Shown piece after piece: positions 1 to 28,860 of a stretch of DNA of 28,860 nt. The position numbers were made by a program, and so were the translations under genes. Every line of letters begins with the position of its first letter. Within the stretch, counting starts at the first letter, position 1. This DNA comes from a virus (Duplodnaviria; Heunggongvirae; Uroviricota; Caudoviricetes). The stretch is from IMG/VR virus record IMGVR_UViG_2547132417_000005. The stretch is one strand, 5' to 3'. The notes under the pieces were generated by a model. That model searched no databases and was not told the DNA's origin. It saw nothing but the letters and a program-made list of their open reading frames with translations.

Positions 1-233
1 CAGCGGAAAGAGCGCTTCGTGCAGTCTGTCTCGGAAAGAAAAATTACGTGTTCTTCGGTAGCGATCACGGCGGCGAGCGTGGAGCACTGCTGTACGGGCT
101 GATCGGCACCTGCCGTCTGAACGGTATCGATCCGGAAGCGTATCTGCGCCATATTCTGAGCGTACTGCCGGAATGGCCCTCCAACCGTGTTGACGAACTC
201 CTGCCATGGAACGTAGTACTCACCAATAAATAA
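1..233 (+). CDS. IS66-family transposase, C-terminal fragment (5' end lies outside the window)
   Basis: Frame is open from the window start to TAA at 231-233. Translation ...LGKKNYVFFGSDHGGERGALLYGLIGTCRLNGIDPEAYLRHILSVLPEWPSNRVDELLPWN resembles the conserved C-terminus of IS66-family TnpC transposases (recalled, not searched). Confidence 0.8.
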   Translation, partial: AERALRAVCLGKKNYVFFGSDHGGERGALLYGLIGTCRLNGIDPEAYLRHILSVLPEWPSNRVDELLPWNVVLTNK

Positions 234-263
234 GCGTCAATACGGTGCTCCGTTGACGCTTAC
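1..263 (+). mobile_element. IS66-family insertion sequence, right end (partial element)
   Basis: Transposase 3' end followed by a palindromic terminal segment TAAGCGTCAA...TTGACGCTTAC ending about 263 (IS66-type ends read ...CGCTTAC / GTAAGCG...). The exact boundary is an inference. Confidence 0.55.
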
Positions 264-758
264 AAGGACTGCTGGCAAACGCCGCTTTGGCTTTTTGATG
301 CACTGGATATTGAGTTTGGATTCTGGCTGGATTCGGCAGCGAGCGACAAAAATGCTCTGTGTGCTCACTGGCTAACTGAGGCCGACGACGCGCTCAATTC
401 TGAGTGGGTAAGCCACGGTGCAATCTGGAATAACCCACCGTACAGCAATATCAGGCCGTGGGTGGAAAAAGCCGCTGAGCAGTGCATACAACAGCGACAG
501 ACGGTAGTTATGCTTGTGCCAGAGGATATGTCAGTCGGATGGTTCAGCAAGGCTCTGGAGAGTGTCGACGAAGTTCGCATTATCACTGATGGACGGATTA
601 ATTTTATCGAACCATCGACAGGGCTGGAGAAGAAGGGAAACAGCAAAGGCTCCATGCTGCTGATTTGGCGACCGTTCATCAGTCCTCGACGGATGTTTAC
701 TACCGTATCCAAAGCGGCATTGATGGCGATCGGGCAGGGCGTCAGGAGGGCGGCATGA
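264..758 (+). pseudogene. Phage N6-adenine DNA methyltransferase (Dam-like), N-terminally truncated at the IS66 junction
   Basis: Open frame ...KDCWQTPLWLFDALDIEFGFWLDSAASDKNALCAHWL...AIWNNPPYSNIRPWVEKAAEQ...VVMLVPEDMSVGWF...RINFIEP contains the NPPY catalytic motif. No ATG lies between the IS end and the motif; the first in-frame start (GTG at 462) is downstream of NPPY. Confidence 0.7.
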
Positions 759-931
759 GGCGACAGCGACGAAGTTTCACCGACATCATCTGCGAAAACT
801 GCAAATCCCTTCCAACGAAACGCTCCAGAAATAAACGCAAGCCAATCCCAAAAGAATCTGACGTAAAAACCTTCAATTACACAGCTCACCTGTGGGATAT
901 CCGGTGGCTAAGATATCGTGCGAGGAAATGA
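755..931 (+). CDS. ninE: NinE-like small protein
   Basis: ATG at 755 overlaps the methyltransferase stop (ATGA), with AGGAGG 5 nt upstream. Product [58 protein letters not shown] matches my recollection of lambda NinE. Confidence 0.75.
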
Positions 932-2638: not shown

Positions 2639-3721
2639 TTAGAACTGGTAAACCATACCTACAGCAACGATATCATCGGTAGCAACGCCAGATGCTTTCG
2701 TGAAATCGCTCTTATCAATCAGGTTGATTTTGTAGTCAACAAAAGTGGACATATTTTTGTTGAAGTAATAGGTTGCACCTACATCAACATATTCAACCAG
2801 GTCCTGATCACCCCAAACACCCAAGTCTTTTCCTTTAGAATGCAGGTAAGCAACGGATGGACGCAGGCCGAAGTCGAACTGATATTGTGCAACAGCTTCG
2901 AAGTTTTGTGCTTTGTTGGCAATATGGTTATTACCAAAAACAGTCATGTTCTGGGTTTCAGAATAGGTGGTGGCCAGATAGATGTTGTTCGCATCATATT
3001 TCAGACCAGCTGCCCATACTTCAGCATTTTGACCAGAAGCATTCAGACCGTTGTTACCGTAGATAACCTGATTATTAGTGCGATCAGATTTAGCATAGGT
3101 TGCACCCACGCCGAATCCTTCATACTCATAAGTAGTTGAGAAACCGAAACCATCGCCATTAGCTTCAGTTACTTCATTTCGGTCATTTTTGCCCTGATAC
3201 TGAGCTGCAAAGTTCAGGCCATCAACCAGACCAAAGAAGTCGTTGTTACGATAAGTTGCAACACCTGTGGTGCGACCAGTCATGAATACATCTGTTTGGG
3301 TCCAGGTATCGCCACCGAATTCTGGCAGAACGTCAGTCCACGCACCGATGTCGTATGCTACACCGTAGTTACGGCCGTAATCGATTGAGCCGTAGTCACC
3401 GAATTTCAGGCCTGCAAATGCAAGACGGGTTTTGTCTTTGGAGGAACCTTGAGATTCAGCGCGGTTGCCTTTGAATTCATATTCCCACTGACCGAAACCA
3501 GTCAGTTGATCGTTGATTTGGGTTTCACCTTTGAAGCCAAGACGGGCATAAGTAGTATCACCATCATCTGCATCATTAGAGGAGAAGTAGTGCTTAGCAT
3601 TAACTTTCCCGTACAGATCCAGCTTGTTACTGTCTTTATTATAAATTTCAGCTGCCTGAGCAGACATCGCCATCAGTACTGATGCAGCTACAGCAGAAAT
3701 TGCCACTGTTAATTTTTTCAT
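2639..3721 (-). CDS. nmpC: Outer-membrane general porin, OmpC/OmpF/NmpC (Lc) family, prophage moron
   Basis: 360-aa product with signal peptide [23 protein letters not shown]|AEIYNK, porin-like sequence throughout, and C-terminal ...VGMVYQF (terminal Phe typical of beta-barrel OMPs). Sits between Q and the holin on the opposite strand, as nmpC does in DLP12. Confidence 0.9.
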
Positions 3722-4264
3722 CGTGAGCCCTTTTTTTTGAACTATTATTAAAAAATGATGTCACTGCGCGATAAATATTCATCTAATCAATGTGATTATT
3801 TCAAGATGTAAGTTTTAGTTTCTCATTTAATTTGTGAAGTAGATCTCTATTTTTATCTGAACTTTTTCTATCGAAACCTATTTATGGCTCTTATTTGAAC
3901 AAAAATAAACCTATTAGCTAATTTATATTAATGGCTGTTATTTATGGGGGTTCTATAATTCGGCAGTTTAATTTAAATCAACTAAAAATAACCTCTGAAA
4001 TTATTTATTGGTTATTTGTTGAGGTTTTCTTATGTATTTGTGGTGGTGTTTTGAACACTCGGTAGCATTCTCATAAATATCATTCAGTGGTTTACGTACG
4101 TAAAAAATTGGTTATGCTGTTAAGAGTGGTTACTTCGTCACACAGCTTAAACCCGCCGTCGAGCTGGTTTTTCCATTTTTTGAGTCTCGATATTAGCTGA
4201 TAACTCAATACCTGAGTTATTCACTGACTCCGAGTCTGTTACGTTTCTGCTTTTTTGCGATACG
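3722..4264. promoter_or_regulatory. AT-rich intergenic region: porin promoter (minus strand) and leader to the lysis genes
   Basis: About 540 bp of strongly AT-rich sequence with no credible ORF, directly upstream of the porin start. Individual promoter elements were not mapped. Confidence 0.35.
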
Positions 4265-22912: not shown

Positions 22913-25900
22913 ATGGGTAAAGGCAGCAGTAAGGGGCATACTCCGCGCGAAGCGAAGGACAACCTGAAGTCCACGCAGTTGCTGAGTGTGATTGATGCCA
23001 TCAGTGAAGGGCCGATTGAAGGTCCGGTGGATGGATTAAAAAGCGTGCTGCTGAACAGTACGCCAGTGCTGGACAGTGAGGGGAATACCAATATCTCCGG
23101 CGTCACGGTGGTGTTCCGGGCCGGTGAGCAGGAGCAGACACCGCCGGAGGGATTTGAATCCTCCGGCTCCGAGACGGTGCTGGGTACGGAAGTGAAATAC
23201 GACACGCCGATCACCCGGACCATCACGTCGGCAAACATTGACCGACTGCGTTTTACCTTCGGCGTGCAGGCACTGGTGGAAACCACCTCAAAGGGGGACC
23301 GGAATCCGTCGGAAGTTCGCCTGCTGGTTCAGATACAGCGTAATGGTGGCTGGGTGACGGAAAAAGACATCACCATTAAGGGCAAAACCACCTCGCAGTA
23401 TCTGGCCTCGGTGGTGGTGGATAACCTGCCGCCGCGCCCGTTTAATATCCGGATGCGCAGAATGACGCTGGACAGCACCACAGACCAGCTGCAGAACAAA
23501 ACGCTCTGGTCGTCATACACCGAAATCATCGATGTGAAACAGTGCTACCCGAACACGGCACTGGTCGGCGTGCAGGTGGACTCGGAACAGTTCGGCAGCC
23601 AGCAGGTGAGCCGTAATTATCATCTTCGCGGGCGCATTCTGCAGGTGCCGTCGAACTATAACCCGCAGACGCGGCAATACAGCGGTATCTGGGACGGAAC
23701 GTTTAAGCCAGCATACAGCAACAACATGGCCTGGTGTCTGTGGGATATGCTGACCCATCCGCGCTACGGCATGGGGAAACGTCTCGGTGCGGCGGATGTG
23801 GACAAATGGGCGCTGTATGTCATCGGCCAGAATTGTGACCAGTCGGTGCCGGACGGCTTTGGCGGTACGGAGCCGCGCATCACCTGTAATGCCTGGCTGA
23901 CCACACAGCGCAAGGCGTGGGATGTGCTCAGTGATTTCTGCTCGGCGATGCGCTGTATGCCGGTATGGAACGGGCAGACGCTGACGTTCGTGCAGGACCG
24001 ACCGTCGGATAAGGTGTGGACCTATAACCGCAGTAATGTGGTGATGCCGGATGATGGCGCGCCGTTCCGCTACAGCTTCAGCGCCCTGAAGGACCGCCAT
24101 AATGCCGTTGAGGTGAACTGGATTGACCCGAATAACGGCTGGGAGACGGCGACAGAGCTTGTGGAGGACACGCAGGCCATTGCCCGTTACGGTCGTAACG
24201 TCACGAAGATGGATGCTTTTGGCTGTACCAGCCGGGGGCAGGCACACCGCGCCGGGCTGTGGCTGATTAAAACGGAACTGCTGGAAACGCAGACCGTGGA
24301 CTTCAGCGTGGGTGCCGAAGGGCTTCGCCATGTACCGGGCGATGTCATTGAAATCTGCGATGATGACTATGCCGGTATCCGCACCGGCGGGCGCGTGCTG
24401 GCGGTAAACAGCCAGACCCGGACGCTGACGCTCGACCGTGAAATCACGCTGCCATCCTCCGGTACCACGCTGATAAGCCTGGTTGACGGAAGTGGCAATC
24501 CGGTCAGCGTGGAGGTTCAGTCCGTCACCGACGGCGTGAAGGTGAAAGTGAGCCGTGTTCCTGACGGCGTTGCCGGATACAGCGTATGGGGGCTGAAGCT
24601 GCCGACGCTGCGCCAGCGCCTGTTCCGCTGCGTGAGTATCCGTGAGAACGACGACGGCACGTATGCCATCACCGCCGTGCAGCATGTACCGGAAAAAGAA
24701 GCCATCGTGGATAACGGGGCGCACTTTGACGGCGACCAGAGCGGCACGGTGAATGGTGTCACGCCGCCAGCGGTGCAGCACCTGACCGCAGAAGTCACCG
24801 CAGACAGCGGGGAATACCAGGTGCTGGCCCGCTGGGACACGCCGAAGGTGGTGAAGGGCGTGAGCTTCCTGCTCCGTCTGACCGTAACAGCGGATGACGG
24901 CAGTGAGCGGCTGGTCAGCACGGCCCGGACGACGGAAACCACATACCGCTTCACGCAACTGGCGCTGGGGCGGTACACGCTGACAGTCCGGGCGGTAAAT
25001 GCGTGGGGACAGCAGGGCGATCCGGCGTCGGTATCGTTCCGGATTGCCGCACCGGCAGCACCGTCGAGGATTGAGCTGACGCCGGGCTATTTTCAGATAA
25101 CCGCCACGCCGCATCTTGCTGTTTATGACCCGACGGTACAGTTTGAGTTCTGGTTCTCGGAAAAGCGGATTACCGATATCAGGCAGGTTGAAACCAGCGC
25201 GCGTTATCTTGGTACGGCGCTGTACTGGATAGCCGCCAGTATCAATATCAAACCGGGCCATGATTATTATTTTTACGTTCGCAGTGTGAACACCGTTGGC
25301 AAATCGGCATTCGTGGAGGCTGTCGGTCAGCCGAGTGATGATGCATCAGGCTATCTGGATTTTTTCAAAGGCGAGATAGGGAAAACCCATCTGGCTCAGG
25401 AGCTGTGGACGCAGATTGATAACGGTCAGCTTGCGCCTGACCTGACTGAAATCAGGACGTCCATAACGGATGTCAGCAATGAAATAACACAGACCGTCAA
25501 TAAGAAACTGGAAGACCAGAGTGCAGCGATCCAGCAGATACAGAAGGTTCAGGTTGATACAAATAATAATCTGAACAGCATGTGGGCTGTGAAGCTGCAG
25601 CAGATGCAGGACGGACGCCTTTATATTGCGGGTATCGGTGCCGGTATTGAGAACACCCCTGACGGCATGCAGAGTCAGGTGCTGCTGGCGGCAGACAGGA
25701 TTGCGATGATTAATCCTGCAAATGGCAACACAAAACCGATGTTTGTTGGTCAGGGTGATCAGATATTCATGAACGACGTGTTCCTGAAACGCCTGACGGC
25801 CCCCACCATTACCAGCGGCGGTAATCCTCCGGCATTTTCCCTGACACCGGACGGGCGGCTGACGGCGAAAAATGCCGATATCAGCGGTAACGTGAATGCG

Positions 25901-26149
25901 AACTCCGGGACGCTCAACAACGTCACGATTAACGAGAACTGTCGGGTTCTGGGAAAATTGTCCGCCAACCAGATTGAAGGCGATCTCGTTAAAACAGTGG
26001 GCAAAGCTTTCCCCAAAAAAGTCGGTGCGTGGGAACGGTGGCCATCCGGTACGGTTACCGTCAGGGTTTGTGATGATCATCCGTTTGACCGGCAGATTGT
26101 TATTCCGGCGGTTATTTTTAACGGTATAGCCCAACAACGTCACGATTAA
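22913..26149 (+). CDS. J: Tail tip / host-specificity protein J, reading frame terminated prematurely at 26149
   Basis: 1078-aa ORF with GAGG upstream of ATG 22913, J-like throughout. It ends ...[48 protein letters not shown], where a duplicated segment shifts the frame. Confidence 0.85.
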
Positions 26150-26348
26150 CGAGAACTGTCGGGTTCTGGGAAAATTGTCCGCCAACCAGATTGAAGGCGA
26201 TCTCGTTAAAACAGTGGGCAAAGCTTTCCCCTGGGACTCCCGTGCACCGGAACGGTGGCCATCAGGGACCATCACCGTCAGGGTTTATGACGATCAGCCG
26301 TTTGACCGGCAGATTGTTATTCCGGCGGTGGCATTCAGCGGCGCTAAA
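25915..26348 (+). repeat. Imperfect tandem direct repeat (2 x about 217 bp) inside the J 3' region
   Basis: 25915-26014 is identical to 26132-26231 (100 bp). The next 117 bp of each copy are homologous but divergent (about 80 percent by eye). Unit length 217 is not a multiple of 3. Confidence 0.8.
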
Positions 26349-26609
26349 CATGAGCGGGAGAATAACGATATTTATTCGTCATGCCGCCTGATAGTACGGA
26401 AAAACGGTGCTGAAATTTATAACCGTACCGCGCTGGATAATACGCTGATTTACAGTGGTGTTATTGATATGCCAGCTGGTCGCGGCCACATGACGCTGGA
26501 GTTTTCGGTGTCATCATGGCTGGTAAATAACTGGTATCCCACAGCAAGTATCAGCGATTTGCTGGTTGTGGTGATGAAGAAAGCCACCGCAGGCATCAGT
26601 ATCAGCTGA
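26130..26609 (+). pseudogene. J: J C-terminal receptor-binding domain, out of frame with the J body
   Basis: Frame open from 26130 (just after an in-frame TAG) to 26609. Encodes ...[85 protein letters not shown]...[14 protein letters not shown], lambda gpJ C-terminus-like. No ATG or RBS; first in-frame alternative start is TTG at 26175. Confidence 0.6.
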
Positions 26610-27340: not shown

Positions 27341-28860
27341 ATGGCAGTAAAGATTTCAGGTGTACTGAAAGACGGCACAGGAAAACCGGTACAGAACTGC
27401 ACAATCCAGCTGAAAGCAAAACGTAACAGCACCACGGTGGTGGTGAACACGCTGGCCTCAGAAAATCCGGATGAAGCCGGGCGTTACAGCATGGACGTTG
27501 AGTACGGTCAGTACAGCGTTATTCTGTTGGTGGAAGGATTCCCGCCGTCACATGCCGGGACCATCACCGTGTATGAAGATTCCCGACCCGGTACGCTGAA
27601 TGATTTTCTCGGTGCCATGACGGAGGATGATGCCCGTCCGGAGGCACTGCGCCGTTTTGAGCTGATGGTGGAAGAGGTGGCGCGTAACGCGTCCGCGGTG
27701 GCACAGAACACGGCAGCCGCGAAGAAGTCAGCCAGCGATGCCGGCACATCAGCCCGTGAGGCGGCAACCCATGCGACTGATGCTGCAGGCTCAGCACGTG
27801 CAGCCAGCACATCAGCCGGGCAGGCCGCGACGTCGGCTCAGTCAGCGTCTTCCAGCGCAGGAACGGCATCAACAAAGGCTACTGAAGCATCAAAAAGTGC
27901 TGCCGCTGCAGAGTCCTCAAAAAGCGCGGCGGCCACCAGTGCCGCTGCGGCGAAAACGTCAGAAACGAATGCCGCAGCGTCACAACAATCAGCAGCCACT
28001 TCAGCATCCACCGCGACCACGAAAGCGTCAGAAGCTGCCACCTCAGCCCGGGATGCGTCGGCTTCAAAAGAGGCGGCAAAATCATCAGAAACGAGCGCAG
28101 CCTCGAGCGCCAGCAGCGCAGCTTCCTCGGCAACGGCGACAGCAAATTCTGCGAAGGCGGCAAAAACGTCCGAGACGAACGCCAAGGCTTCTGAAACGGC
28201 AGCGGGACAGAGTGCCTCAGCTGCGGCAGGCTCAAAAACAGCGGCTGCGTCGTCTGCCAGTGCCGCGTCAACAAGTGCCGGGCAGGCCTCAGCCAGTGCC
28301 ACCGCCGCCGGAAAATCGGCAGAAAGTGCCGCATCGTCCGCTTCAACAGCCACAACGAAGGCTGGCGAAGCCGCTGTACAGGCCAGCGCAGCAGCGAGGT
28401 CTGCTTCCGCAGCGAAGACATCCGAAACGAATGCGAAAGCGTCGGAAACCCGTGCAGAATCCTCAAAAACGGCAGCCGCATCGTCCGCCAGTTCGGCAGC
28501 GTCATCGGCATCATCTGCGTCTGCTTCAAAAGATGAGGCGACCAGACAGGCGTCAGCAGCGAAGGGCAGCGCCACGACGGCATCCACGAAAGCAACAGAG
28601 GCGGCAGGCAGTGCGACGGCAGCATCTCAGAGCAAAACTGCTGCTGAATCCGCTGCGACCCGTGCGGAAGCTGCTGCTGATCGTGCTGAAGAGATTGCCG
28701 GTGCAGTTGCGATGGAAGACGCAAGCCTTACAACTAAAGGTGTTGTGAAACTTAGCAGTGCTGTTGATAGCACCAGTGAATCGCTGGCCGCAACGCCAAA
28801 AGCAGTTAAAGCAGCCAATGACAATGCGAATAGCAGGGTGCCATCTAACCGAAAAGTTAA
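27341..28860 (+). CDS. stf: Side tail fiber protein Stf, N-terminal 506 codons (3' end beyond the window)
   Basis: Starts MAVKISGVLKDGTGKPVQNCTIQLKAKRNSTTVVVNTLASENPDEAGRYSMDVEYGQYSVILLVEGFPPSHAGTITVYED..., followed by a long Ala/Ser/Thr-rich repetitive region. No stop before the window end, so it is absent from the ORF track. Confidence 0.85.
   Translation, partial: MAVKISGVLKDGTGKPVQNCTIQLKAKRNSTTVVVNTLASENPDEAGRYSMDVEYGQYSVILLVEGFPPSHAGTITVYEDSRPGTLNDFLGAMTEDDARPEALRRFELMVEEVARNASAVAQNTAAAKKSASDAGTSAREAATHATDAAGSARAASTSAGQAATSAQSASSSAGTASTKATEASKSAAAAESSKSAAATSAAAAKTSETNAAASQQSAATSASTATTKASEAATSARDASASKEAAKSSETSAASSASSAASSATATANSAKAAKTSETNAKASETAAGQSASAAAGSKTAAASSASAASTSAGQASASATAAGKSAESAASSASTATTKAGEAAVQASAAARSASAAKTSETNAKASETRAESSKTAAASSASSAASSASSASASKDEATRQASAAKGSATTASTKATEAAGSATAASQSKTAAESAATRAEAAADRAEEIAGAVAMEDASLTTKGVVKLSSAVDSTSESLAATPKAVKAANDNANSRVPSNRKV

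Follow-up and report, generated by a model that had tools for sequence, protein, structure and literature searches.

The window analysed here, which is the whole of a draft contig of 28,860 bp (APZL01000083.1; assembly GCA_000356845.2), begins with the end of a transposase gene that abuts a phage methyltransferase frame devoid of a start codon. This arrangement raises the question of whether an insertion sequence (IS) has broken a gene of the prophage nin region, as a sequence-only reading of the window had proposed, and, if so, what this lambda-like E. coli prophage has lost by it. That the window opens inside the IS is explained by its being an entire short-read contig, at whose edge the assembler was stopped by a multi-copy element; at position 1 the assembly breaks off within a repeat, and the IS is not biologically truncated there.

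The IS66-family end and its boundary

The first 263 nucleotides (positions 1–263, plus strand) are the right end of an ISEc47-like element of the IS66 family, namely the last 263 of its 2,541 bp, and are identical over this stretch to the copy in the complete genome CP189652.1 (locus L182). They contain the 3′ end of tnpC, the gene of a DDE transposase (positions 3–233, plus strand), with 76 codons and the stop TAA at 231–233, where the sequence-only reading had also seen the transposase end. In profile searches this tnpC fragment matched PF13817 (DDE_Tnp_IS66_C, E-value 2.2e-17), the end of PF03050 (positions 259–283 of 284, its last 25 positions) and NF033517 (transpos_IS66, positions 333–385 of 387). 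The full-length TnpC of CP189652.1, with 537 aa, scores 450.5 bits on NF033517 (cut-off 180), which identifies it as an IS66 transposase, and the three-gene tnpA-tnpB-tnpC layout is present there in full (143, 116 and 537 aa), the window showing the tnpC end only. TnpB of the same insertion reaches 119 bits on NF033819 (cut-off 50), and TnpA falls below the cut-off on the IS66 TnpA models. The right 688 nt of the IS, extended in the IMG/VR record L013, are 99.9% identical to copies labelled 'IS66-like element ISEc47 family' by PGAP, and it is from these PGAP labels that we take the name ISEc47-like. The IS of CP189652.1 and the reference copy L181 are 99.6% identical.

The boundary of the IS was set by three full-length copies that carry their own 8-bp duplications (L002, L181 and L182). 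The right tip ends in ...GACGCTTAC, or ...GTTGACGCTTAC, at position 263, the last with homology to IS copies, and 264 is the first nucleotide of target DNA. Read from the outside in, the right terminal inverted repeat (positions 240–263, minus strand) is GTAAGCGTCAACGGAGCACCGTAT..., it matches the left end of ISEc23-type elements at 20 of 24 positions, and its first eight nucleotides (GTAAGCGT) are identical to the left end of the same element (GTAAGCGTAAAGCC...). The terminal sequence thus agrees with IS66-family ends, the right end reading GTAAGCGTCAACGG... and the left end, in L182, L088 and L181, GTAAGCGTAAAGCC... The copies L002 (ISEc23-type, duplication AAGTGTAT) and L181 (ISEc47-type, duplication TCGCACAA) both start with GTAAGCG and end with CGCTTAC. 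The imperfect terminal inverted repeats of IS66 elements reportedly begin with 5′-GTAAGCG. A passage of PMC6778807 describes IS66 elements as having three ORFs and producing 8-bp duplications (the latter citing Machida et al., 1984). Compared with ISEc47 and ISEc23-type members of the family, the element shares the tnpA-tnpB-tnpC order, the GTAAGCG...CGCTTAC ends and the 8-bp duplication, and no structural difference was found; the insertion site alone is particular. We also noticed an AAG directly after the right end of three independent copies of this IS type, at 264–266 in the window (AAGGACTG), at 4262–4264 in L002 (AAGTGTAT) and at 3764–3766 in L014 (AAGAGATG), L181 having TCGCACAA in this place, which may be a weak target preference or a coincidence.

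The palindromic terminal segment described by the sequence-only reading, ending in ...CGCTTAC at about 263, corresponds to a terminal hairpin (positions 231–262, plus strand) with a perfect 10-bp stem (TAAGCGTCAA/TTGACGCTTA, arms at 231–240 and 253–262) and a 12-nt loop. Its folding energy is -17 kcal/mol (z = -3.07), and it overlaps both the tnpC stop and the right terminal inverted repeat. No T-run follows it on the 3′ side, no promoter-like or terminator-like site was predicted in positions 1–1000 of the window, with no outward hybrid promoter at the IS end, and no Rfam match was found in the window.

The methyltransferase gene fragment

The 3′ part of a methyltransferase gene follows immediately (positions 264–758, plus strand), without start codon or promoter, and comprises codons 12–175 and a stop at 756–758, its translation beginning with KDCWQTP. 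In an alignment with the intact homologue of 175 aa, the window frame is 100% identical to residues 12–175, and the first 11 codons (MTIKSNTPAHD) are absent from the window. Hundreds of E. coli prophages have an intact 175-aa gene in the interval from ninB to ninE (for instance at 2970–3497 in L001, annotated as 'phage N-6-adenine-methyltransferase'), and the gene part of the window is 99.9% identical to them; for the IS part, identity to many E. coli IS copies is 100%. Since both parts of the junction match such abundant relatives, a chance match can be dismissed.

The fragment matches the Pfam family Dam (PF05869; 3e-62, 209.7 bits with a cut-off of 28.1, model positions 9–167 of 169) and TIGR01712 (phage_N6A_met; 2e-75, 251.7 bits with a cut-off of 97.05, model positions 11–165 of 165). 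The tetrapeptide NPPY, catalytic motif IV of N6-adenine methyltransferases, was recognized at 432–443 (plus strand) from the sequence and the alignment. No in-frame ATG, GTG or TTG occurs between the TAA at 231–233 and a GTG at 462, so the view of the sequence-only reading, that an IS66-family end abuts a Dam-like gene and removes its start, and that the frame runs from KDCWQTP to NPPY with no start codon before the motif, holds on every point. The window has no complete ORF for the enzyme, and what it carries is a gene fragment, i.e., a pseudogene. The GTG at 462, the first canonical in-frame start, opens a residual ORF of 98 aa (positions 462–758, plus strand) that begins 3′ of NPPY, and therefore any product of it would be without the catalytic motif. 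The depositors called a gene of 172 aa (positions 240–758, plus strand), which starts at a non-canonical ATA (240–242) inside the IS end; no Shine-Dalgarno-like sequence is visible upstream of this codon, and the call is probably an annotation convenience and not a real start. A public ORF of 174 aa with a GTG start, antisense to the methyltransferase gene and ninE (positions 365–889, minus strand) and without family match, is probably spurious.

The intact protein and orf32 of VT2-Sakai (AP000363, 16434–16961) are 100% identical in sequence, and the identity is at least 99% in 201 phage records, mostly of Stx-converting phages; to the dam genes of T1-like phages, which belong to the same family, it is 32–35%, and sequence searches gave no relative in the PDB. 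Because orf32 is the sole methylase-like ORF annotated in VT2-Sakai, it is presumably M.EcoVT2Dam and, on this correspondence, GATC-specific; a passage of PMC6602927 (citing Radlinska and Bujnicki, 2001) reports that M.EcoVT2Dam methylates GATC. In comparison with orf32 (presumably M.EcoVT2Dam), the window copy occupies the same position between ninB and ninE, is 100% identical over residues 12–175 and keeps NPPY, but it is without codons 1–11, the start codon and the upstream coupling, because the IS lies between.

A prophage adenine methyltransferase gene split by an IS has been described before: in the Stx prophage phiPA2, IS629 splits an 'adenine methyltransferase' gene, with lower spontaneous induction and virulence (Gong, Chakraborty and Koudelka, 2023; PMC10810198). 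The phiPA2 enzyme is of the MT-A70 type (DPPW), is encoded near the left prophage end and acts on 16S rRNA together with a partner protein (PMC10810198), whereas the present gene is a nin-region gene of another, unrelated family (PF05869, NPPY), and GATC is its reported target. The likeness between the two is a functional analogy only, and the idea that the present gene is the rRNA-methylating enzyme of that study was rejected, as that enzyme is of the MT-A70/DPPW type and has another position in the prophage.

Breakage of this methyltransferase gene is not rare, 6 of the 72 full-length copies in an IMG/VR sample being disrupted. The residual 98-aa ORF is also called in many other prophages, where the gene is broken by frameshifts or deletions: in L003–L012, internal frameshifts or stops leave ORFs of 49–58 aa and of 98 aa (some of these assemblies are error-prone), and deletions have joined the 3′ half of the methyltransferase gene directly to xis (L005, L010–L012) or to cro (L004). 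In the annotation of Stx2a_F349 the methyltransferase is likewise given as a pseudogene.

The complete insertion in related prophages

The whole event is carried by CP189652.1, a chromosome of 4.94 Mb that has one mismatch to the window in 10,758 nt and was found via the depositors' 172-aa gene call (ATA-240 to 758), for which three records were returned. In this genome ninB is followed by a 41-nt 5′ stub of the methyltransferase gene, by the 2,541-bp IS and by the remaining 3′ portion of the gene, with a copy of AAGGACTG at either edge of the IS; with slashes at the IS ends, the junctions read ...CACGAC AAGGACTG / GTAAGCG...IS...CGCTTAC / AAGGACTG CTGG. The 8-bp target-site duplication foreseen by the sequence-only reading is therefore present, and so is the disruption of the nin region, the whole IS lying between ninB and ninE. 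In the source strain itself the right copy of the duplication is seen (positions 264–271, plus strand), falling in codons 12–14 of the methyltransferase gene. The left side is independently recorded in L088, a 5.7-kb IMG/VR contig (cI-cro-cII-O-P-ren-ninB) picked out from 80 IMG/VR loci in which the first 33 nt of the gene are present; it matches positions 2119–7844 of L182 with 100% identity and ends in the same left junction, ...CACGAC AAGGACTG / GTAAGCGTAAAGCC... The methyltransferase had been described as truncated, which is true of the window, where the first 11 codons are missing, but the gene is split and not deleted, its first 41 nt lying across the IS in L182.

A search of 5,426 complete RefSeq E. 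coli genomes, a collection to which CP189652 does not belong, gave no instance of the junction. An exact-match scan for the right junction gave none in genome contigs or metagenome contigs and one IMG/VR contig, and the left junction was found in none of the metagenome contigs. The left end of ISEc23-type elements, GTAAGCGTAAAC, was also tried as the left junction and rejected, with none in IMG/VR and three chance 20-mer matches in unrelated bacteria; the true left end is GTAAGCGTAAAG.

These junctions are those of a textbook simple transposition with an 8-bp duplication, as expected of IS66 elements. The best explanation of the locus, which we hold with high confidence, is that a 2,541-bp IS66-family IS inserted into an orphan Dam-type gene at codons 12–14, between ninB and ninE. 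The IS, with its tnpA-tnpB-tnpC genes, would have transposed in the orientation of the nin genes into this lambda-like E. coli prophage, duplicating the 8 bp AAGGACTG. The left product would be a stub of 14 codons, MTIKSNTPAHDKDW, ended by a stop that the IS end supplies (G-TAA), and the right product, codons 12–175, would have no start codon, no ribosome-binding site and no coupling to ninB, so that no methyltransferase is expected from it.

With its start inside a multi-copy repeat, a draft contig could in principle owe such a junction to a misjoined repeat end, the methyltransferase gene being intact in the real genome, and the same contig does contain a suspicious imperfect duplication of 217 nt in the tail-tip gene J, unique among assemblies (see below). 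Nevertheless, the identical junction is present in two other assemblies, one of them being the complete 4.94-Mb chromosome, in which the IS is whole and its 8-bp duplication perfect, and the complementary left junction is present in a fourth record (L088). An assembly artefact is thus extremely unlikely, and is effectively refuted by the evidence of CP189652.1.

The second of these assemblies, AQFE01000019.1 (L183; the same as IMG/VR UViG_2531839531_000004, L013), agrees in the IS and in the right junction, and shows another state on the left. Relative to L182, it is without 407 nt to the left of the IS, which comprise the greater part of ninB together with the 5′ stub and the left copy of the duplication (L183 7340–7485 against L182 7077–7483), and its left IS end abuts ninB at about codon 24. 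The IS in L183 is 1 nt shorter than in L182, and this 1-nt deletion splits tnpC. From this comparison, the L183 state looks like a secondary, IS-adjacent deletion that followed the original insertion.

The source strain could have this left-flank deletion too, in which case the 5′ stub and most of ninB would be truly lost. The left flank would then read ...GGTACAGCAAAT / GTAAGCGTAAAGCC..., and in the simple state ...CACGACAAGGACTG / GTAAGCGTAAAGCC... L183 shares the right junction, and the window differs from it by 2 nt in 10.7 kb. The window is, however, nearer to L182 (one mismatch against two), with which it shares the porin allele at 2755, and L088, whose ends lie at the same two IS elements in the manner of a short-read contig, shows the simple state. 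We regard the deletion as unlikely in the source strain, which probably carries the simple insertion.

Consequences for expression and for the prophage

In L182, 2.5 kb of IS separate the methyltransferase coding sequence from its start codon, from the ATGA overlap with ninB and from pR-driven transcription. The next gene, ninE (positions 755–931, plus strand; PF05322 at 1e-40), encodes in the window a rare Y18S variant of NinE, and its ATG overlaps the methyltransferase stop (ATGA, 755–758). As judged from this overlap, ninE is probably coupled in translation to an upstream methyltransferase gene that is now untranslated, and its own translation would fall. Transcription toward Q must cross the IS, with possible polarity on Q. 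The N-modified polymerase of lambda is said to read through IS-borne terminators, and the polarity on Q would thus depend on the presence of N.

Synthesis of the enzyme could nevertheless have survived the insertion, if read-out from tnpC were followed by a start at ATA-240 or by re-initiation 6 nt after the tnpC stop, giving an active methyltransferase with a remodelled N-terminus. tnpC and the methyltransferase share frame and orientation, with one stop codon and 30 nt between them and no terminator-like site; all conserved positions are kept from the DxWxTP segment onward (PF05869 9–167 of 169; TIGR01712 11–165 of 165); and the depositors' annotation uses ATA-240, a start that table 11 permits. 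However, E. coli initiates very poorly at ATA, the candidate codon at 240 has no Shine-Dalgarno-like sequence before it and sits in the stable hairpin, and nothing resembling a promoter points out of the IS end, which makes continued synthesis very improbable. More improbable still is a wider role of the IS than that of a knockout, in which read-out from tnpABC would provide low, repressor-independent expression of the remodelled Dam and of ninE-ninX-rusA-Q in the lysogen and, by analogy, change spontaneous induction; if this were true, IS read-out would alter induction much like the IS629/methyltransferase polymorphism in phiPA2.

Inactivation of the methyltransferase by the insertion is the reading that we retain. 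The loss of a phage-encoded methylation function, proposed by the sequence-only reading, agrees with the absence of a start codon, and the loss itself we infer; it is probably of little consequence, since GATC, the reported target of what is presumably the same enzyme, is also the site of the host Dam. Because the host Dam methylates this site, the methylome of the lysogen is expected to be unchanged.

That the prophage is decaying, as was also suggested, is plausible. In favour of decay are the IS in the methyltransferase gene, a second IS66-family element in L182 and L183, and a split gene J in the window; against it are the full-length ORFs of the replication genes (in the relatives) and of the late genes (in the window), with the exception of J, whose frameshift is possibly an artefact. 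The second IS66-family element (L182 1–2407; L183 1–2815) is a different one, with TnpA, TnpB and TnpC of 215, 115 and 523 aa, and ends in ...GAGTCGCTTAC, 121 nt from the 3′ end of a 345-aa gene left of cI. It adjoins the immunity region, at the pL-N site of relatives such as MRE162, and a nested IS3-like transposase is seen at its left side in L183; judging from these relatives, the prophage carries several IS elements.

The 345-aa protein (L182 2529–3566, minus strand; L185 13122–14159) is encoded in the rex position, beside a LexA-type repressor, and has no Pfam match; homologues with 37–76% identity occur in Yersinia and Morganella, and the gene could be one of superinfection exclusion or defence.

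The tail-tip gene J (positions 22913–26609) is split into an ORF of 1078 aa and an ORF of 144 aa. A segment of 201 nt (25912–26112) recurs at 26129–26329, 90% identical and 16 nt apart, and the 217 nt added in comparison with other gpJ genes shift the J frame. The 1078-aa product is recorded for this contig only, and the duplication may have arisen in assembly, by the joining of two J alleles, or may be a scar peculiar to the strain.

A 360-aa porin gene of the OmpC/NmpC type (positions 2639–3721, minus strand) separates Q from the lysis cassette, an arrangement also known from DLP12-like prophages; about 7,500 blocks of the collection list a protein identical to this one, and AQFE has a single N323D difference. 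Just upstream of rusA there is a remnant of a DUF1364 gene (positions 1396–1485), and since this region is annotated as an incomplete pseudogene also in L001 and L030, it represents an older lesion shared by this prophage type. The right contig end (27341–28860) is also within a repeat, the side tail-fibre gene, of which a 38-mer (28760–28797) recurs in 27 IMG/VR contigs, including a second AQFE prophage contig (L040).

The event described here involves an IS and an accessory gene that were both known, public assemblies already contain it in annotated form, and the insertion is ordinary prophage wear. The copy in the window is a pseudogene of a widespread prophage gene of the Dam type, its contig edge is a repeat-induced break, and its interest lies mainly in annotation. 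Together with its relatives, it provides in AQFE01000019.1 one documented case of IS-mediated erosion followed by an adjacent 407-bp deletion, and any effect of the loss would be expected on phage fitness or on downstream nin/Q expression.
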